IMG/VR virus record: IMGVR_UViG_3300037419_002114
Origin: an uncultured virus (IMG/VR IMGVR_UViG_3300037419_002114)
Taxonomy: Duplodnaviria; Heunggongvirae; Uroviricota; Caudoviricetes
Length of the DNA stretch: 20,000 bases
Strand: one strand, 5' to 3'
Positions within the stretch are counted from its first letter, which is position 1; every line of letters begins with the position of its first letter. This document shows positions 1,926 through 20,000 of this stretch, one piece after another. The translations under genes and the position numbers were made by a program. A model generated the notes under the pieces. The model saw only the letters and a list, made by a program, of their open reading frames with translations. It did no database searches and had not been told where the DNA came from.

Positions 1926-3098
1926 TTATTGAAGTGGTTGACCACTTAAAAAACGAAGCACATTGGCTGCGTCATGAAGTTTGCTTTGAGCGTCTGCATC
2001 TGTTGAAAGACCATATGCTTTTTGAAGAACCAAAAGTCCTGCGTTTGCCGTATCCACATCAAGGACAGGCGGTTTATTCAATCGAAGTGTTTGTCCAACG
2101 AACAAAGCATCGCTAGTGAGTCCATTAAATGCTTTAATATCCGAAATCGCAAGTTTCGTTTTCATTGAAACTGAATAAAGTGTGTCGCCTGCAACGACTG
2201 TATAGATATCCGTTGGTGCTGGCGTTGGGTAGTTATCCCAAATCCACGTTCCATCGGAAATTTGACGAACAGACGAATGATCCCACTTCTTTGCTTCAGT
2301 AATGGCATCCGTTTGTGTGACGAACTCTTGAAGCAATTTTTCGAATTGATATACGCGGTACTGCATCGGTTTTGGAAGCACTTTAATATATTTACCGCTC
2401 ACATATCCGCCTTCCGGACCATACGTTGTTTTATACCAATCTACGCCATCAACCGTATCTTTTTCGATTAGATGAATCTGATCGTTGAGTTTTAGTTGAT
2501 AACGAACCGGAAACGTTGTTCCAAGTCCTGCACGAATGTTTAACGTAGAAGCAGGGTCAATACCAACGACTTGTCCGATATCATCCATTACAACACCTTT
2601 AACGCCATTTAAAAGAATAGCAAGTTCATGACGAAATTGATCCATCGACTTTCCGTGTGCTTGAAAGTATTCGTCTGGATCTGTATGTGTACCGTGGTCT
2701 TGCGGATACATAATCGTTACTTCGTGGTGAGAATATACTTTTTCAACTGGAATTTTCCAACGAGTGCAGATATCACTTGCAAGCCATAAAGCACGATTCC
2801 ACACTTCCGTAAACTTAGTCATTTCGGTAAACTCGCAACATTCCACACCTATCCCGGAGTGGTTAGCAGTATAAAGAGCGTGCCAGGCAATTTCTGTTTC
2901 CGGCACAGTTCGAATGATGGAGGTGTCGTCAACAAAGTAATGAGCACTCGCATTACGATTTCCGGTATTAAACCAGTTAAATTCATTTTGTGCAGTTGCC
3001 CCATTATCTGCCGTTGAGTGAATGACAAGGATTGTTGGGTTTAATGGTTGGTTGCTTCGATTATATGAAATTAATTTTTCAGTAATTTGATATGCCAT
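1926..3098 (-). CDS. Endolysin: N-acetylmuramoyl-L-alanine amidase (Amidase_2-type) with SH3b and LysM cell-wall-binding domains
   Basis: Zn-amidase motifs VIHST, SAHYFVDD, EIAWHA, GIGVE and HTDP. SH3b-like LNIRAGLGT...WYK...GYVSGKYI. LysM YTVVAGDTLYSVS...FNGLTSDALFVGQTLRL. Lies downstream of the holin. Confidence 0.93.
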   Translation of the reverse strand: MAYQITEKLISYNRSNQPLNPTILVIHSTADNGATAQNEFNWFNTGNRNASAHYFVDDTSIIRTVPETEIAWHALYTANHSGIGVECCEFTEMTKFTEVWNRALWLASDICTRWKIPVEKVYSHHEVTIMYPQDHGTHTDPDEYFQAHGKSMDQFRHELAILLNGVKGVVMDDIGQVVGIDPASTLNIRAGLGTTFPVRYQLKLNDQIHLIEKDTVDGVDWYKTTYGPEGGYVSGKYIKVLPKPMQYRVYQFEKLLQEFVTQTDAITEAKKWDHSSVRQISDGTWIWDNYPTPAPTDIYTVVAGDTLYSVSMKTKLAISDIKAFNGLTSDALFVGQTLRLNKPPVLDVDTANAGLLVLQKAYGLSTDADAQSKLHDAANVLRFLSGQPLQ

Positions 3099-8587: not shown

Positions 8588-9487
8588 CTACCTCGTCAAC
8601 TTTGGCATAAACAAAAGTCCAGCGGAAATGATAGCCGTTGCGTGAACTGGATTTGTTTTGAGTCCGCTTAATGCTTGCATGCTTGCATAGTTATCAATCG
8701 CTTCTTGCACTTGTGCCGAAGTAGGAGTAGGAGGGGAAGTAATCACAGGTGCTGAAGGGGTCGGTGCAACATGTTCATACATCGTAGGCGGAACAGGTTC
8801 TGTTACCGTAATGGTGTGGGTCACTGTACCGTTTCCAATGCCAGGAATCGTCAACACTTGTCCGCTATAAATCACGTTCGGATTTTTAATCTTATCGGTG
8901 TTGGCGTTATAAATCGTAGGCCATTTTGTGGCATCGCCATAAAATCGCTTAGAAATTGCCCATAACGTATCGCCATTTTTTACCGTATACGTTCCGGCAA
9001 CTTGTTCGGTCACTGTACGAGTCACCGTTTTTGTGCCTGCTGGTGAGTACGTTCTCCAACGAAGAGGACGATACTGCTTAAAGGAAATATCGAAATACAC
9101 ATCACCTGGTTCTCCACCATTTTCATGATACGTAAACGAACGAACCGTAACAGGGAATGTGATATCGGTATTGGTGACCGTTAGATATAAAACCGTGGAA
9201 GCATGCATCCAGTTGATGATTTTATTTGTTGCATCATACGGTGCTAAAAAGTTTGGTGTATGGCAATAACTTGGATTGTAATCTCGTGGGAAGAAGGAAC
9301 TGAAGGACACCGAATATTGCTTCGGTGTTCCTGCAATCGTCACTTCACCATAGTTGACTACATTTATATCTTGAAACTGCGTGTCTTTGGTTACAGAAAA
9401 AGAAGAGGGATTGACAGGAAATAAAATCCTGTCATCCCCATTCGATAACCAAAATTGCATTTTTGGTTGAACTGGATACTGTATCAT
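8588..9487 (-). CDS. XkdP-like LysM-domain tail tube initiator protein
   Basis: Motifs FPVNPSS, FSSFFP, GDVYFDISFKQYR and LysM YTVKNGDTLWAISKRFYGDATKWPTIYNAN...IYSGQVLTIP. Follows the tape measure gene. Confidence 0.9.
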   Translation of the reverse strand: MIQYPVQPKMQFWLSNGDDRILFPVNPSSFSVTKDTQFQDINVVNYGEVTIAGTPKQYSVSFSSFFPRDYNPSYCHTPNFLAPYDATNKIINWMHASTVLYLTVTNTDITFPVTVRSFTYHENGGEPGDVYFDISFKQYRPLRWRTYSPAGTKTVTRTVTEQVAGTYTVKNGDTLWAISKRFYGDATKWPTIYNANTDKIKNPNVIYSGQVLTIPGIGNGTVTHTITVTEPVPPTMYEHVAPTPSAPVITSPPTPTSAQVQEAIDNYASMQALSGLKTNPVHATAIISAGLLFMPKLTR

Positions 9488-13685: not shown

Positions 13686-13910
13686 TTATTGTTTATTGCG
13701 TAACTGTTGCTTGCGTATCTCTTTTTGCCGTTTTTCAAATTCATCTTGTTCATCCTCCAACTGGGTGATCATCGATGCATAGATGAATCGCTTTTGTCCA
13801 TAGGGGAGGTTATAGATTTCATGGGGCAGAATGTGATGACGCTGAAAAATAATATGGAGCAGGCGTGCCTCTGGATCTGAGTCATCGCCTGCCCCCTTAA
13901 TTAGTCCTTT
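13686..13910 (-). CDS. -1 frameshift extension of the tail assembly chaperone (gpGT-like C-terminal part)
   Basis: The -1 frame overlapping the chaperone stop is open for 74 codons: KGLIKGAGDDSDPEARLLHIIFQRHHILPHEIYNLPYGQKRFIYASMITQLEDEQ...RNKQ*. It has no early start codon or RBS and fills the gap before the tape measure gene. Confidence 0.8.
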   Translation of the reverse strand, partial: KGLIKGAGDDSDPEARLLHIIFQRHHILPHEIYNLPYGQKRFIYASMITQLEDEQDEFEKRQKEIRKQQLRNKQ

Positions 13911-14290
13911 ATTTCGTCCTCACTGTCCGCATAGCCACTTAGTGCCATAATCTCTCCGGACAAACGAGAAATCTCACCTGGTAAGAATAGTTCCTGTACT
14001 GCATCAATGGCAGAACCATATTGTGCTACAATTTGCATATCATTGAGGTTAGGGTCAATGACACCATTTGCGATAATCAACATCCCAAATTGCACTTCAT
14101 CAAGTTGGCTTTCATTTTTCTTGCCTGGCACTGGGAATGTTGCTTGCTCACGAAGGCGTTGCAAAAGTTTGTAGTCAATCGACTGCAATTTAAAATCTGC
14201 ATCAAACCGTTTCATGTAGAATGTTTTGGTAGGTTTCGTTCCTCCAACTGCAAGCAGTTTGCTCAAAAGATCGTCATTTTTCTTAGTCAT
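13901..14290 (-). CDS. Tail assembly chaperone, XkdN-like
   Basis: Lies between tube and tape measure. Motifs IDPNLND and LFLPGEISRLSGEIMALSGY. RBS GGAGG. Confidence 0.88.
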   Translation of the reverse strand: MTKKNDDLLSKLLAVGGTKPTKTFYMKRFDADFKLQSIDYKLLQRLREQATFPVPGKKNESQLDEVQFGMLIIANGVIDPNLNDMQIVAQYGSAIDAVQELFLPGEISRLSGEIMALSGYADSEDEIKD

Positions 14291-14341
14291 CGTAATTTTC
14301 CTCCAAAGTTTTTCATAAGTTTTTGTTTTTTAGCATAATAT

Positions 14342-14370
14342 AAAAAAAGCAGGGGGCAATAAGCCCCCTT
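14342..14370 (-). terminator. Intrinsic terminator after the tail tube gene
   Basis: Minus strand AGGGGGC-TTATT-GCCCCCT followed by GCTTTTTTT. Confidence 0.8.
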
Positions 14371-14391
14371 TTAAATAAACGGTTATTCTTT

Positions 14392-15322
14392 TTATACAGG
14401 GCGAATCGTAGAAAGAAACTCGAAACTGTCGAAAGTGAACGGAAGTTCTTCTTTGACAATATCGCCAACAGTGAACTTCAACACGTCAATCTTGTCGAAA
14501 GACACGCCCTTCACACGAATGCGAAGCGATTGTCCGTTAGGCGAATCCGGGTCAGCAGCCGAGAAAATCAACTCGGTAACCCAAGGCTTTTTGGTATCGT
14601 CCATAACTTGGGCGATGTTTTCAAGGAACTCAGTCGTAACTTTATCTTTTCTACCCTGTCTTTCGACATATTTGCATAGGGAATAGACTATACCACACAC
14701 TCATTGAGTGTCCTCTTGGTAGTCGTTGGGGGCACGCCATTACGCTTATCCCTGCTGATTGTCCAATCCTAAGAATTTTTACACTTTGGTATCTTAGGCT
14801 CTAAGGAGTTTCCAGCATATTCGAGGTTTGCTATAAGCATCACTGCTTAAAGGGGCTATACGTTAACCCAGTTAAATGACCAGTTCCTTTAAAACCAACA
14901 ATCTTATTACCGATAGAACGTGTACCTGCACGTTTAATTTCGGTCTTTTGAAGGTCAACAGAGATTTCTCCACTGTCAGCATTCATCAACCATTGTCCAC
15001 CATAGTACACAGTAACGAAGTTCATTTTCTTTACGTTCTTGGCTTTTTATCCAAGACTCCTATACCTTCCTATTCGGTATAGATGAGCATACATTTTCAC
15101 CCTCGCCATTATGCGTTAGGGTGTCGAGCACTCGTGGAGAGATTATATTTATTCACTCTCTATGCGTTACACTGCTTTTACGCCTTTCGCTATCGTAAAA
15201 GTTAGCACGGTATTAGGAATCTCACCCTTCACCGTTTTTGCTCGATGATTATATAGATGCTTTCGCACCTACACGGCAACTGATTTACCGGAGATTACTT
15301 GAGAACCGTCTAAATATGCCAT
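14392..15322 (-). CDS. Tail tube protein (XkdM-like, 148 aa), split into three exons: 15322-15287, 15022-14866, 14645-14392
   Basis: ATG at 15322 follows RBS GGAAGGAG just after the sheath stop. Joined exons read MAYLDGSQVISG|NFVTVYYGGQW...KIVGFKGTGHLTG(Y)|KVTTEF...ADPDSPNG...EELPFTFDSFEFLSTIRPV. This restores the tube motifs VIxG, GTGxxTxYKV, DPD and ELPFTF. Confidence 0.92.
14646..14865 (-). ncRNA. Group I intron (220 nt, ORF-less), second intron of the tail tube gene
   Basis: 5' exon ends GGGU and pairs with the intron guide GCCC (U.G at the splice site); intron ends in G (AGAAAAG). Core elements: P AUAUGCUGGAAA, Q AAUCAGCAGG, R CAACGACUAC, S GGUAUAGUC. P7 GACUA/UAGUC, P3 CCUC/GAGG, P8 ACACUC/GAGUGU, P9 UGUC-GAAA-GACA. 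Phase-1 splicing creates the UAU (Tyr) codon of TGYKV. Confidence 0.92.
15023..15286 (-). ncRNA. Group I intron (264 nt, ORF-less, subgroup IA-like), first intron of the tail tube gene
   Basis: Junctions CCGGU^AAAUCAGUUGCCG ... AAAAUG^AACUUC. Guide AGUUGCCG pairs with the ligated junction CGGU|AACU over 8 bp including U.G. P3 UCGAGCA/UGCUCGA, P4 ACGGU/ACCGU, P7 GCAUA/UAUGC with J6/7 GUAAC, extra stem GAGAG/CUCUC between P7 and P3', P8 CACCCU/AGGGUG. Phase 0. Confidence 0.92.
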
Positions 15323-15340
15323 GGTCTATTCTCTCCTTCC

Positions 15341-16411
15341 TTATACGAAGATACTTAGGAATACTTGCTCAATCGAGTCAAGTTCTAAGTAACTCACTGT
15401 GATATAAAGTTGATCGCCAACAGATTGCTCAGTCTTATCAACACCAACTTGAATGTTCGTCAGCACTTCTGCTGCTTGAAGGGATTCAAGATAGAGTTTA
15501 ACCATCGATTGAACATAAGCCGCTCCGTTGCTATCGTTTGTGATTTGTCCGATAACGGATGCTTCAACAGAACGAGTGATCGAAGTGGAAACCGTTTGGC
15601 GAACTTTCTCTTTACGAATTTTCGTAAGATTAGTTGTGATGCCTTGCTCAAGTCGTACAAACTCGCCATTGTTTACAAGCACCAAAGAACCGTTTGCAAC
15701 TGCATTTTTAATGTCAGAGATTGCAAGGCGTTTGGTTACATCGTCAACAGGCAACTTGAGGAACGTGATGCTTTTTTGGAGAGGGCAAGAAGCAACTGCA
15801 CCAGCAACATAACTTGCGAATTGTGCAGAGTTCTGAGTTACTCCATCAGTTACAACACCACTGATAAGGTTTAATACATAGTCATCTTTCACACGAACAC
15901 TGCGAGCATTACCAATCGAAGGGTCAAGGTCATCAGCCGCTACTACACAACCAACTACTGCGAAGTAGTGTTTGCCAAGGTCACGATTTTGTTTTACCCA
16001 ACGAACGCAGTCGTCTTGTTCTGTTGCAGATACGATACCATCGTATGCGAACACATCGAAGTTATAGGTGTCAAGCACCGCACGAGCGTCATCATACGCA
16101 ATCTTTTCGGTTACAGTCGTACCATCGATTGCTTCAAGCGTATACACAAGAACTTGAGCAGCCCCTGCGGATAGAGCGTTTTTAATCGATTGAACGTTAG
16201 CCGCTCCGAACGTATTTTCTGCAGTGGTAATGTCATTGATTGTATAAACAGTTTTTGCGGTTGCAGTTCCGTATGTCACCAAAGGGATAGCGACAACCCC
16301 ACGACTTGCTACAGTCGAAGAAACCTGTGCATTTGCTAGGGAAGTAAAGCGAACATACAAACCTGGAAGGGTATTACTTGCATTAGATGTTGGATCCCAT
16401 GTTCCAGCCAC
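15341..16411 (-). CDS. Contractile tail sheath protein (XkdK-like, compact 356 aa)
   Basis: N-terminal LPGLYVRF...RGVVAIP, YVAGAVA...SITF, LEQGITT...KIRK, YLESLQ and C-terminal DSIEQVFL. Precedes the tube gene. Confidence 0.9.
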   Translation of the reverse strand: MAGTWDPTSNASNTLPGLYVRFTSLANAQVSSTVASRGVVAIPLVTYGTATAKTVYTINDITTAENTFGAANVQSIKNALSAGAAQVLVYTLEAIDGTTVTEKIAYDDARAVLDTYNFDVFAYDGIVSATEQDDCVRWVKQNRDLGKHYFAVVGCVVAADDLDPSIGNARSVRVKDDYVLNLISGVVTDGVTQNSAQFASYVAGAVASCPLQKSITFLKLPVDDVTKRLAISDIKNAVANGSLVLVNNGEFVRLEQGITTNLTKIRKEKVRQTVSTSITRSVEASVIGQITNDSNGAAYVQSMVKLYLESLQAAEVLTNIQVGVDKTEQSVGDQLYITVSYLELDSIEQVFLSIFV

Positions 16412-16427
16412 TAGAGTTCATCTCCTT

Positions 16428-16874
16428 TTAAGGAATAATTACCGTAGAAACACTCTGAATCTTAGCGAGTTCGCCTTGATCGATTGCTTCACGGGTTTGC
16501 GTTGTAAGTACGCCAACTAAAACATTCATGCTCGACTCGTTCCAAAAAGGCTGACCAAACGTAAGATGTTGTATTCTCATATATTTGAGCGTATCTTGTA
16601 TTGGAATTAAAAGCCGTTTGTTGAACGAATACGAAGCAAGATTATCAACGACATTCAAACAATCTTGAATGTTATTGCTAAAGTAAACGATTTGCCATTC
16701 GCGAGTAATCACAGAATGAGAAGCCGTTTCAAGTTTTCGATTATCGGATTGATATCGAATAACATACGTACCACTTTGAGGAGTTAAAGGTACGTTCTGA
16801 CGTTCGATAGTAGCAGTAGGGTCACAATATTGAATAAAGGAAACTACTGATTCAAGTTCCGTTATCAGCGACAT
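16428..16874 (-). CDS. Tail terminator / tail completion protein (XkdJ position)
   Basis: ATG at 16874 (MSLITELESV) follows RBS AAAGGGGTGG, next to the upstream stop. Lies immediately before the sheath gene. Confidence 0.7.
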   Translation of the reverse strand: MSLITELESVVSFIQYCDPTATIERQNVPLTPQSGTYVIRYQSDNRKLETASHSVITREWQIVYFSNNIQDCLNVVDNLASYSFNKRLLIPIQDTLKYMRIQHLTFGQPFWNESSMNVLVGVLTTQTREAIDQGELAKIQSVSTVIIP

Positions 16875-16875
16875 G

Positions 16876-17337
16876 CTACCACCCCTTTGCTCGTAATGCG
16901 GATTCAATCTCGGATTCGATAGCATCTTTCAACTGAGCATTTACCGTATCAAAGGCGACTTCAAAGTGATTCCCATATCCGATTCCTTTTTTCGGACTCC
17001 AACCTTCTTCCCCTCGTTCATACCAGTAAAGGGCGTAGTTAAAGTCACGATGTGAAAAAAGAATATGTTTTCCTGTCTTACTTCCTTTATCGCCTGCATA
17101 CGCATTATCGTAAATTTCACCAACCATCACACCGCTTGAAAAAACGGAAGCGATCGGGTTTACGACTTTGATTTCATCTTGCAAATGCCCTGTATCAATC
17201 AGTGCATCTCTTCGTGTTTCCTCAGCCCAAATTTGAAGAGCATTTTGGATTCCTTTTTGACTGGCTTTACCAATCGTTTGTGGTGTGGTTTGCATCGCAC
17301 GTTTTAACTGTGAAAGTCCTTTGATGGACAAACTCAT
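16876..17337 (-). CDS. HK97 gp10-like neck/tail completion protein
   Basis: Motifs SIKGLSQL, ALIDTGHLQDEI and FNYALYWYE. Confidence 0.82.
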   Translation of the reverse strand: MSLSIKGLSQLKRAMQTTPQTIGKASQKGIQNALQIWAEETRRDALIDTGHLQDEIKVVNPIASVFSSGVMVGEIYDNAYAGDKGSKTGKHILFSHRDFNYALYWYERGEEGWSPKKGIGYGNHFEVAFDTVNAQLKDAIESEIESALRAKGW

Positions 17338-17684
17338 ATCACAGTCACCACACTCAACATCGGCTTTCCGGATAATCCTCGGATAACTTTAACCGACAGA
17401 ATCGAATAGATAACCTTGTTGCCAAGTTCGTCAATATACTGAATCTGATCGTCTAAGTCTAAGTCGATATGTTTATCAAAGAAAATCTCGCCAGTAGCAA
17501 CAATTTCTTTTCCACGCACATCACGAATCGAATGCATAGCAGAAGCGTTTTTCATCACTTTTGCCCCATCGTTAATTCGGCATTTTACTTCCACTGGCGG
17601 AAGGTCTATCTGTCCGCCCCACCCATCGGAAGTTTTGCTTTTGCGTAAGATGGTCACCTTTTGGTGCATAGGGATTAGTGGCAT
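17334..17684 (-). CDS. Head closure / head-tail adaptor protein
   Basis: MPLIPMHQKVTI...DGWG...VKCRI...DDQI pattern; gene order. Confidence 0.75.
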   Translation of the reverse strand: MPLIPMHQKVTILRKSKTSDGWGGQIDLPPVEVKCRINDGAKVMKNASAMHSIRDVRGKEIVATGEIFFDKHIDLDLDDQIQYIDELGNKVIYSILSVKVIRGLSGKPMLSVVTVI

Positions 17685-17685
17685 G

Positions 17686-18093
17686 TTACTTCATCCCTGT
17701 ATACCTTACTTTATAAGAAGCAGGCTTATTATTTGCCTTAGCGATCAACTGCACGCTAATTGGTGGGATTAGCGAAGTGAAGTCGATATAGTTCGCTTGG
17801 CGAACGCCCATACTCCGAAAAGAGAACGTTCCGAGCGATTGAATCGTAAAAGAATCGATACCTTGAAGCTGAAGTTTATTCGTATCGGAAAACATAATCG
17901 ATAACACATTAGCAAACTCGTAAACGGCAGGGTCGGGAATGATAAGGTTCGGATATGCGTCCGTAAGCGTTCGACTGGCTACATTTAAAAGTCTTGTTTT
18001 TTGGTCATCCTCAATGTTCGATACCCATTCTTCAACATCAATGCAATTAAGAGAAATATATTCGTTTGCAGAAGTTACATCCAAAATGAACAC
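17686..18093 (-). CDS. Head-tail connector (head completion) protein
   Basis: ANEYI...W...DQKTRLLNVASRTL...AVYE...GIDSFTI pattern; gene order after the capsid. The true start may be TTG at 18084, after GGAGGTG. Confidence 0.72.
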   Translation of the reverse strand: MFILDVTSANEYISLNCIDVEEWVSNIEDDQKTRLLNVASRTLTDAYPNLIIPDPAVYEFANVLSIMFSDTNKLQLQGIDSFTIQSLGTFSFRSMGVRQANYIDFTSLIPPISVQLIAKANNKPASYKVRYTGMK

Positions 18094-18098
18094 CTCCG

Positions 18099-18404
18099 TT
18101 ATTTAGTAGAGGATTTCTTTTTCGGCTTTTCTTCTGCCACTTCCTCCACTTTTACTTCTTCAACAGGTGAAACTTCCTCCGCAGGAACTTCCTCAACTAC
18201 TGCTTCTTCTTTTACTTCCTCTTGGACTTCATCCTTACAAGGACATTCAAGAACTTTAATATATTGAGGTGCAAGTGCTTTGAGAGCCTTTACTTCTTCT
18301 GCATCAGTTGTTTCATATTCGCCAAAGTAATCAAAACGGATTTCTTTGTCCGCAAATTTTACTTTATAGAATTGACTAGATTTAAATTTGTGTTTCTCGT
18401 TCAT
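18099..18404 (-). CDS. Small capsid-associated hypothetical protein with Glu/Val-rich low-complexity tail
   Basis: RBS AGGAGG. N-terminal IRFDYFGEYETTDAEEVKAL, then EEV repeats and a basic end. Lies immediately after the capsid gene. Confidence 0.8.
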   Translation of the reverse strand: MNEKHKFKSSQFYKVKFADKEIRFDYFGEYETTDAEEVKALKALAPQYIKVLECPCKDEVQEEVKEEAVVEEVPAEEVSPVEEVKVEEVAEEKPKKKSSTK

Positions 18405-18416
18405 CGTCTACCTCCT

Positions 18417-18446
18417 AAAAAAAAGAGGTGGCCATTACGCCACCTC
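18417..18446 (-). terminator. Intrinsic terminator after the major capsid gene
   Basis: Minus strand GAGGTGGC-GTAATG-GCCACCTC followed by T8, about 15 nt after the exon 2 stop. Confidence 0.85.
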
Positions 18447-18461
18447 ATGTTTTACCAACAA

Positions 18462-19848
18462 TTAAGAAACAGTTGTAGAAACGTTCTCGATGATGGCTAC
18501 TTTCTCTTTAGCGTTCTTCACGCGAAGACCGTATTCACCACGAATTTGACGAGCAACAAAGTCAGCCATTTTCTTTACGTTCTTGGCTTTTTATCCAAGA
18601 CTCCTATACCTTCTTATTCAGTATAGATGAGCATACATTTTCACCTTCAACTTGACTTGGTAAGGTGTCGAGCACTCGTGGGTTCATTATATTCTCTTGC
18701 GAGGTTCAGAACCTATGCGTTACGGTGAGCCACATCTATTACAATGTGCTTTACCTCGGTATTAGCATCTCAGCCTTCACCGATATTGCTCGATAATAAC
18801 ATAGATAATTTCTTACCTAAGCGGCAACTGATTTACCTGGGATCGATGCGTCAACGTCATACAATTGACGACCTTGAAGTGGAGCGAACTCAAGGATGTT
18901 GCGGTCAAACAGAACGATTTTATCTTTCGGCATGTTAGGGTCAACAACCAATACCGCTTCTCCGCCACCGATCATGTCGGAAACGATGGTGCTGATTTGG
19001 TGACCTGTTGCAGAATCCGTTCTTTGCGTACGGATAGCAGCATCTGCCATTTTGGAGATTTGACGAGCACCAGCCGTGTTAGTCAAGATGGTGTTAGCCA
19101 TTCCGCCCCTTTTGAAAATTTCTTCGAAAAGATCGTTAACGCCCTTAGCAGAAAGTTCTGCACCACCGTTGTTTACTTTGAAAGATCCTTCAAGGTTAGC
19201 GAAGTTCAAAAGTCCGCCAGTCATACGAGGTGCACCTGCACCAGCATCGATTCTACGTCCGTAGATGATGGAATCGTTCATCTCACGAGCAAGTTCTTTC
19301 AAACGAAGTTGAACTTGGTAGTTCAGTTCATCGCCAACGTTGTATACATTTGTGTGCATACGAGTGTTGGTAACAGAAGCGTAACGTTCGAAGATTTGAG
19401 TGTAGTTGAACTGTACCAAACGGTCATGTCCTTCGTCCACTCCAGGCATTGCACCCTCAAGTTGAGGACGAGCAACAATGCGAAGTTCATCGCCTGCATT
19501 ACCTGATACTGCAGTCGTTCCATCGAAACCACGAACAACTGTGATTTGGTCACCGTTTACTGCGGTTACTTTCATATACTCATCGCCAAAAACTAAAACG
19601 GCATTCACACGGAATTTACCGCCATCGCCAGCAATAAGTGTAATCGTAGTATCGCCAGCCGCGAAAGAAGCGGAAGCATTTGCACGATTAGAATTCAAAT
19701 GGTCTTGCATCCACTCAAATTTGGTCTGAGTGTGTGGTACTCCGTTAAGACCGATAAGACCAAGCAAAATAGGTGCATCGTTGATAATCAACGAGATACC
19801 TGCTTCGAGGTCGCGAATTTGGTCTTGGAAATCATAAGACTTTAACAT
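18462..19848 (-). CDS. Major capsid protein (SU10/DUF5309-like, 372 aa), split into exons 19848-18835 and 18566-18462
   Basis: RBS AAAGGGGAG. Motifs KFEWMQD, NYTQIF, ELNYQV...KELAREM and RMTGGL. Exon 2 supplies ADFVARQIRGEYGLRVKN...TTVS*, carrying the conserved GEYxL capsid C-terminal motif, and is followed by a terminator. Confidence 0.92.
18567..18834 (-). ncRNA. Group I intron (268 nt, ORF-less, subgroup IA-like) in the major capsid gene
   Basis: Junctions CCAGGU^AAAUCAGUUGCCG ... AAAAUG^GCUGAC. P1 GGU/GCC with U.G, P10 UCAGU/GCUGA, P3 UCGAGCA/UGCUCGA, P4 UCGGU/ACCGA, P7 GCAUA/UAUGC, extra stem GGUUC/GAACC, P8 CACCUU/AAGGUG. Phase-0 splicing restores the reading frame. Confidence 0.92.
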
Positions 19849-19934
19849 CGAAGGTTCTCCCCTTTAATTTACTTTTTTTTAGTATCAATATCACGCTTTT
19901 GGTCTTTATTGGAGTAACTACTCATCATCGCTTT

Positions 19935-20000
19935 TTATCCTTTTAACAGATTTTTTAGTTTGTTCGAAAGAGTAATTACTTTATTAAAGTCCTTTTTGCG
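19935..20000 (-). CDS. C-terminus of the upstream gene, probably capsid scaffolding protein (partial)
   Basis: Open frame RKKDFNKVITLSNKLKNLLKG* ending at 19935. Amphipathic basic helix directly upstream of the capsid gene. Identity is inferred from position only. Confidence 0.5.
   Translation of the reverse strand, partial: RKKDFNKVITLSNKLKNLLKG

Follow-up and report, generated by a model that had tools for sequence, protein, structure and literature searches.

The capsid and tail tube genes in a 20,000-nucleotide (nt) stretch of an uncultured Caudoviricetes virus (IMG/VR record IMGVR_UViG_3300037419_002114; the whole stretch is here called the window) are interrupted by three inserts. These are very likely group I introns without an open reading frame (ORF), and their removal by splicing is predicted. 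Intron C lies in the capsid gene, and introns T1 and T2 lie in the tube gene. An initial annotation, made from the letters of the DNA alone, had described inserts of 268, 264, and 220 nt that each follow a U and end in G, and products of 372 and 148 amino acids (aa) after their removal. We recomputed every one of these numbers, and all were correct.

The exons were joined by a script. The capsid exons yielded an ORF of 372 aa and the tube exons an ORF of 148 aa, each with a single terminal stop codon. The U that precedes each intron pairs with a G in a P1 helix of 5 to 6 base pairs: GGU^AA with UUGCC in C, CGGU^AA with UUGCCG in T1, and GGGU^UA with UAGCCC in T2 (^ marks the exon border here and below). 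The intron-terminal G is placed so that the exons ligate in frame, colinear with their homologues. In C and T1, moving the cut by 1 nt leaves the protein unchanged, and the boundary was chosen by the U/G rule; the T2 boundary is unique. In-frame stop codons occur 15 to 25 nt from each intron start, and the capsid ORF as called (19848..18817, 343 aa) enters intron C and ends after ...IPG-KSVAA. With a coding capacity of at most 73 to 89 aa, the introns are ORF-less by size. The ORFs that overlap them (33 to 64 aa) are only mechanical, lying on the opposite strand or running across an intron boundary.

Alignments with intron-less homologues supported these boundaries. With capsid exon 1 as the query, 122 homologues were found at E<=1e-10. 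Nearly all have 366 to 377 aa, the full-length ones mostly 369 to 376 aa, and 372 aa is the commonest length (25 of 120 listed proteins). The first 40 of these 120 proteins were used for alignment. All 39 full-length homologues (P0002-P0040) were gapless at the junction, reading ...(P/A/N/K)G^AD(F/Y)VARQIRGE, and exon 2 aligned without a gap to their C termini. The two exons together match the SU10-type major capsid protein family over its full length. A 343-aa homologue (P0001, 97% identity) represents the same shortened call in a sister record. Thus, the mis-annotation of the capsid gene that had been foreseen is already present in the protein collection. A search of contigs for loci carrying capsid exon 1 returned one distant locus (31% identity), which was not used.

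For the tube gene, tblastn with exon 3 found 11 phage records annotated as XkdM or tail tube, and a search of the protein collection for longer homologues of this exon found none. Four intron-less tube proteins (Brevibacillus phage MRSA107, Sporosarcina phage Lietuvens, BalMu-1 XkdM, and phiCD119 XkdM) were aligned, and 4/4 were gapless at both junctions; the MRSA107 protein reads VISG^HTGQV and GTLNG^YKVTT across them. Assignment to the XkdM-type tube proteins (PF09393, DUF2001) was borne out by a full-length match and by the position of the gene between the sheath and XkdN-like chaperone genes. PHROGs gave the same exon order as Pfam in both genes. The junction peptides that had been proposed, SIPG^ADFVARQ, VISG^NFVTV, and HLTG^YKVTT, therefore match intron-less homologues in the alignments that we ran.

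The group I identity of the tube introns was detected with the Rfam family RF00028. When a 691-nt stretch was scanned, T1 was matched at 15296..15060 (35.8 bits, E 1.9e-7) and T2 at 14875..14664 (35.1 bits, E 3.3e-7), both over model positions 1-253. In both alignments, the predicted 5' splice site, with its U.G pair, falls inside P1. The family was also run on two phages as a positive control and gave 19 matches in the Bacillus phage AR9 and 5 in the Pseudomonas phage KIL1. Intron C is a paralogue of T1, with 213 identical positions over their 268 and 264 nt (repeat families of 87% and 82% identity). A group I covariance-model search, suggested in the initial annotation, thus recovered T1 and T2, below the cut-off, and failed to match C. 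The classification of all three as ORF-less group I introns was upheld by the T1 and T2 matches, the paralogy of C with T1, and the covarying fold that C and T1 share.

This fold was derived from an alignment of C, T1, and eight phage relatives (10 sequences from 10 loci). RNAalifold returned P2, P3, P4, P5, P6, an extra hairpin between P7 and P3', P8, P9, and P9.1, with compensatory changes at 47 of the 61 pairs. By the extra hairpin, C and T1 would be expected to fall into subgroup IA. The P7 pseudoknot helix (GCAUA with UAUGC) was added by inspection before a recount. Over nine helices, 96.9% of 653 cells were then paired, and 48 of 66 pairs changed on both sides; 0/500 shuffles reached these values. 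Five of the seven P3 pairs covary. In P7, A-U is replaced by G-C in the same 3 of 10 sequences on both strands of the helix, and its G-C and C-G pairs, predicted to bind the guanosine, are invariant in 10/10 family members. For T2, compensatory changes in P3 and P8 were read from an alignment with Lak-B1; the 3' halves of T2-type introns differ by an insertion and were not alignable by MAFFT.

Several results weigh against the group I assignment or against splicing. The RF00028 scores of T1 and T2 lie under the 50-bit Rfam gathering cut-off, which is an operational and not a biological definition; E values of about 1e-7 are significant. Intron C had no RF00028 match even at E<=10 on 321 nt. 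Standard Rfam scans returned no group I match in the whole window (at the gathering threshold) or in positions 14200-20000 (at E<=10). We attribute this to a filter effect, since the T1 and T2 matches surfaced once 691 nt were searched. The genome-wide RF00028 route was likewise blank for phiCD211 and V1SA09 despite an annotated Intron_gpI in the former and a cmscan match in the latter, and a blank by that route means little. Covariation within P7 is limited to one of its five pairs. The margin over slid controls (32-43% of cells paired, 11-16 two-sided pairs) is inflated, since the alignment used for counting had itself supplied most of the structure. No homing endonuclease family was found among the 24 window ORFs and exon pieces scanned with Pfam, and none within the introns. 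Finally, RNA is absent from the 10 listed sequencing runs, and the four runs compared consist of DNA contigs, which are unable to show splice joints; the splicing of all three introns is a prediction. Three apparent joints in run X7 (41-nt sides, depth 246) were rejected, as they look like unrelated repeats or sequences of other organisms.

The blank standard scans would also fit an insertion of another kind, namely a miniature transposon, a group II intron, a translational bypass element, or an assembly artefact. We consider this extremely improbable. Inserts of 220-268 nt are too small to be group II introns, which are typically larger. A direct-repeat search listed no repeats flanking the inserts; inverted repeats were not searched. 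To our knowledge, bypassing of more than 200 nt, three times over, is unprecedented. The RF00028 alignments span the whole model at E of about 1e-7, and the covarying fold includes a P3/P7 pseudoknot. In addition, the junctions are crossed in independent contigs, the exon-intron DNA being the same in public soil and rhizosphere runs. One contig (X10 record 6) bridges the whole of intron C and both its junctions (18507-18940, one difference), and another (X9 record 25) bridges tube exon 2 and the ends of both flanking introns (14831-15052, no difference). The exon-intron arrangement is bridged by contigs of other runs, and C and T1 are also present in a sister record (G001, described below), so that an assembly artefact is excluded. 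A group II intron, an intein, translational bypass, and assembly error were each considered and rejected.

As a separate observation, one X9 contig fits capsid exon 2 up to position 18566 and then continues with a sequence that, translated by eye, reads ...HDMDASVPG. This single contig hints at an intron-less relative.

We also weighed whether the inserts are decayed, nonsplicing intron relics, which would make pseudogenes of the capsid and tube genes in what would be a defective prophage or a phage remnant. The scores under the curated cut-off and the failure to detect C would be compatible with decay; the phage is represented by a metagenomic contig, and its splicing is a prediction. Against this, all three inserts keep the exon phase, the U/G boundaries, and complete helices, and the exons are open and conserved, the tube gene differing from that of G001 by 37 nucleotide changes and only 2 amino-acid changes. 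A second record retains C and T1 at 98% identity, as do contigs of several runs, and the other late genes of the window are intact. Decay of this kind is thus highly unlikely, and functional group I introns remain the preferred explanation.

The comparison with G001 also gave information on intron turnover. This virus record is 98% identical over 5 kilobases (kb) and has C and T1. It is without T2, and at the T2 site, it has the uninterrupted sequence ...CAC CTT ACG GGA TAC AAG GTA ACG.... This intron-less allele confirms the boundaries of T2 at the DNA level. Instead, G001 has a 265-nt intron 27 nt upstream of the T2 site, after the first base of codon F56 (RF00028, 81.4 bits, E 2e-21). The 37 differences between the two spliced tube coding sequences (CDSs; 447 nt) are unevenly distributed, with none in nt 1-125, 25 in nt 126-201 (all synonymous), and 12 in nt 226-369 (two amino-acid changes). 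The insertion sites, at nt 166 for the G001 intron and nt 193 for T2, are both surrounded by the synonymous tract. As far as the two sequences tell, presence or absence of an intron at a fixed site together with a flanking synonymous tract is the pattern expected of recombination with co-conversion. Regarding endonuclease-driven homing, site polymorphism with apparent co-conversion was found, and an intron-encoded or adjacent endonuclease was not.

By analogy with other members of the class, the late pre-mRNA would fold into a group I core, an external guanosine would attack after the U.G wobble pair of P1, and the intron-terminal G would dock, with ligation of the exons yielding the mRNAs for the 372-aa capsid and 148-aa tube proteins. 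In unspliced RNA, translation would stop 5, 5, and 8 codons into the introns, giving a capsid protein without its conserved last 34 residues and fragments of the tube protein. The most plausible reading of the introns is as selfish mobile elements: efficient splicing would make them tolerable to the phage, and their turnover would occur by DNA-level recombination, as the sister phage suggests. This view of them as selfish and mobile is based on the paralogous copies, on relatives in many unrelated phage genes, often with homing endonucleases, and on the replacement of T2 in G001.

The initial annotation had proposed a different role, in which splicing, by its rate or timing, could serve as a control point for making the capsid and tube proteins and thereby gate assembly. 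The literature discusses conditional splicing of group I introns in bacteria and phages. The location of three introns in the genes of two of the most abundant virion proteins and the early in-frame stop in each intron provide circumstantial evidence only. The sequence, by comparison, gives no pointer to a regulatory role. The 98%-identical G001 lacks T2 and has a different intron at a different site, and none of the 39 aligned capsid and four tube homologues has an intron at these sites, indicating that the introns are dispensable and interchangeable. Moreover, relatives of the introns are scattered over unrelated genes in unrelated phages, a distribution that selfish elements would be expected to show. 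No result of ours supported gating of morphogenesis, which we regard as improbable; the findings point to ordinary selfish mobile introns.

Relatives of the C/T1 type were found by BLAST of intron C against phage genomes (33 records, 9 of them covering at least 80% of the query). In the Bacillus phage PJN02, the element lies inside a split RecD-like helicase gene together with an endonuclease gene. In the Clostridium phage phiCD211 (locus L002, 2499-3082), the element (2501-2751) lies directly after a CDS annotated as minor tail protein and is followed by an annotated Intron_gpI (2792-3057) and then by the tape-measure CDS; the two CDSs may represent one tape-measure gene split by two introns. 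In the crAss-like phage cr6_1, the element adjoins a gene for an "intron-encoded endonuclease", and in phiCP39-O, it follows an HNH endonuclease gene. The C/T1 family is thus spread through phages of Firmicutes, with one member in a crAss-like phage. A megablast search of the 5.6-kb region against phages gave a sole match of 39 nt.

Within the window, C and T1 have the P1 loop and guide in common (AAAUCAGUUGCC), and both are located after ...C-N-GGU in genes that are otherwise dissimilar. The shared guide and ...GGU site may fit reverse splicing or the action in trans of an endonuclease encoded elsewhere. It is conceivable, yet rather unlikely, that C and T1 represent an ORF-less intron that spread within the genome to a second, unrelated gene by guide-directed reverse splicing and not by homing, and that the tube gene is a hot spot where two introns compete, at sites 27 nt apart in the sister phages.

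T2 belongs to a second intron family, whose other members lie in genes that include the AR9 terminase and the KIL1 portal. A search with T2 gave 110 phage records, in each of which less than 80% of the query was covered. At 78-86% identity, its core (query positions 49-117) matches parts of the AR9 terminase intron (RF00028, 70.6 bits), whose CDS is joined from five pieces, and of the KIL1 portal intron (59.9 bits), whose CDS is joined from two. Both of these introns, which lie in other host genes than T2 does, have an insertion between P7 and P3' that T2 is without. In the Bacillus phage WH1, the T2-like stretch begins precisely where the first half of a split Pol III alpha gene ends. An element behind a tube-like gene in Staphylococcus Kayvirus vB_SauM-V1SA09 shares 86% identity with the 3' 50 nt of T2; the tube gene of this Kayvirus probably carries an unannotated intron near its 3' end.

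At this Kayvirus locus (L005, 1852-3610), we observed a tail-tube-like ORF of 134 aa (phrog_985, positions 1-134 of 141). RF00028 matches directly 3' of it, at 2244-2533 (43.5 bits, E 8e-10 in a cmscan of 601 nt), where no intron is annotated; an ORF matching intron-encoded or HNH nuclease families follows. Contigs matching only the T2 core were also observed in runs X2, X7, and X10 (about 14751-14817, A>G at 14783, depth 17-59). They run on into unrelated sequence, indicating T2-like introns in other genes of other, more abundant soil organisms.

Group I introns in late genes had been presented in the initial annotation as less common than those in DNA-metabolism genes, and this rarity was overstated: introns in the Twort tube, Tuc2009 capsid, Cluster J capsid and tail, and Bacillus prophage tube genes are documented. 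According to PMC11878797, the three-intron gene orf142 of the Staphylococcus phage Twort encodes a tail tube protein. In the same paper, 4 of 8 genes found to splice did so in infected cells only. As in that system, the window represents a contractile-tailed phage of Firmicutes with several small group I introns in a short tube gene. The tube gene has three introns in Twort and two here, and the tube family differs, being phrog_985 in the related Kayvirus locus and XkdM/DUF2001 here. Splicing of the Twort introns was reportedly demonstrated experimentally by Landthaler and Shub in 1999, whereas here it is predicted.

In Cluster J mycobacteriophages, PMC3706429 describes spliced introns in the capsid gene (LittleE) and in a minor tail gene (BAKA/Optimus). 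The BAKA tail intron, of 265 bp and without an endonuclease gene, is related to the capsid intron, and a capsid-gene intron of the lactococcal phage Tuc2009 is cited there. Cluster J resembles our case in having U/G-bounded introns in major capsid and tail genes, with related copies in two structural genes; the hosts and capsid folds of Cluster J and Tuc2009 differ from ours. The LittleE capsid intron encodes an endonuclease, unlike the three ORF-less introns here, and Cluster J splicing is described as confirmed by reverse transcription-PCR and N-terminal sequencing, whereas ours is inferred. A group I intron interrupting the tail tube gene in prophages of Bacillus weihenstephanensis KBAB4 as well as B. 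cereus B4264 is reported in Tourasse and Kolsto 2008 (PMC2504315). A tube gene of a phage of Bacillales is split in both cases, by one intron there and by two here. The rule of an early in-frame stop, given in PMC2504315, holds here too.

The window is the late-gene region (head, tail, baseplate, and lysis) of a contractile-tailed soil phage, with all genes on the minus strand. The closest capsid relatives are in Paenibacillus and Brevibacillus genomes. Upstream of the tube gene lies the sheath gene (15341..16411; PF04984, PF17482), and downstream is the gene for the XkdN-like chaperone (13901..14290; PF08890). The tube gene begins 19 nt past the sheath stop codon and is preceded by GGAAGGAGAG. 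Further products matched by Pfam are a tape measure protein, baseplate proteins, an amidase endolysin, and a tail-fibre-like protein. Throughout, the tail module resembles the PBSX/XkdK-M-N type. An endolysin (domains Amidase_2, SH3_3, and LysM) and a LysM-bearing tail or baseplate protein are encoded at 1926-3098 (-) and 8588-9487 (-), respectively. Between the capsid gene and the head-tail connector genes is a 101-aa ORF (18099-18404, -) with no Pfam match, whose acidic tail, rich in E, V, and K, is built from repeats with a 12-nt spacing between some copies. The features of the two split genes are collected in Table 1.

Table 1. Exons, introns, predicted intron helices, and terminator-like hairpins of the capsid and tail tube genes in the window
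Feature	Position	Strand	Details
Capsid exon 1, SU10_MCP type	18835..19848	-	338 codons, ends ...ATC CCA GGT; Pfam PF17236, E 4.5e-56, profile 9-259 of 292
Intron C	18567..18834	-	268 nt, ORF-less group I intron (predicted); begins AAA, ends ATG; U before, terminal G at 18567
Intron C, helices P1-P3		-	P1 guide UUGCC 18827..18823; P2 18819..18802 (GAAA loop); P3 18793..18787 with 18674..18668
Intron C, helices P7-P8		-	P7 GCAUA 18718..18714 with UAUGC 18635..18631; P8 18667..18662 with 18647..18642
Intron C, helices P9-P9.1		-	P9 18626..18621 with 18610..18604; P9.1 18601..18595 with 18586..18580
Capsid exon 2	18462..18566	-	34 codons and stop (ADFVARQIRGEYG...); PF17236 profile 265-291 of 292, E 0.0073
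Terminator-like hairpin 3' of capsid gene	18425..18446	-	8 pairs, 6 of them G-C, then TTTTTTTT (T run)
Tube exon 1, XkdM/DUF2001 type	15287..15322	-	12 codons (MAYLDGSQVISG); colinear with the N termini of 4/4 tube homologues
Intron T1	15023..15286	-	264 nt, ORF-less group I intron (predicted); U before, terminal G at 15023
Intron T1, helices P1-P3		-	P1 guide UUGCCG 15279..15274; P2 15271..15254; P3 15245..15239 with 15130..15124
Intron T1, helices P7-P8		-	P7 15165..15161 with 15091..15087; P8 15123..15118 with 15103..15098
Intron T1, extra hairpin between P7 and P3'		-	15160..15156 with 15141..15137
Intron T1, helices P9-P9.1		-	P9 15082..15077 with 15066..15060; P9.1 15057..15051 with 15042..15036
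Tube exon 2	14866..15022	-	157 nt (NFVTV...GHLTG and first base of Y65); PF09393, E 6.2e-8, profile 15-62 of 139
Intron T2	14646..14865	-	220 nt, compact ORF-less group I intron (predicted) of a family distinct from C/T1; U before, terminal G at 14646
Intron T2, helices P1-P3		-	P1 guide UAGCCC 14858..14853; P2 14849..14834 (GUGA loop); P3 CCUC 14826..14823 with GAGG 14715..14712
Intron T2, helices P4 and P7		-	P4 14817..14812 with 14757..14753; P7 GACUA 14724..14720 with UAGUC 14690..14686
Intron T2, helices P8 and P9		-	P8 14711..14697; P9 14681..14678 with 14657..14654, enclosing GUC-GAAA-GAC
Tube exon 3	14392..14645	-	Last two bases of Y65, KVTTEF...IRPV, stop; PF09393, E 3.4e-13, profile 65-138 of 139
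Terminator-like hairpin and T run 3' of tube gene	14351..14369	-	7 pairs, 6 of them G-C

Group I introns in structural genes and tube genes with several introns are already known, and the arrangement described here is no new kind of biology. What it adds is the presence of two unrelated intron families in one 447-nt gene and a sister phage that documents turnover. The comparison with G001 is a natural snapshot of intron turnover in a virion gene and is useful for studying the movement of ORF-less introns. Both genes are mis-called, the capsid gene as the shortened 343-aa product and the tube gene as separate fragments, and annotation, structural prediction, and proteomic searches for this phage group need the spliced forms. 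There is also a gap in detection: normal Rfam group I scans missed all three introns, including C, whose family is widespread and strongly covarying. A dedicated covariance model for the C/T1 family would probably uncover many unannotated split genes in phages.

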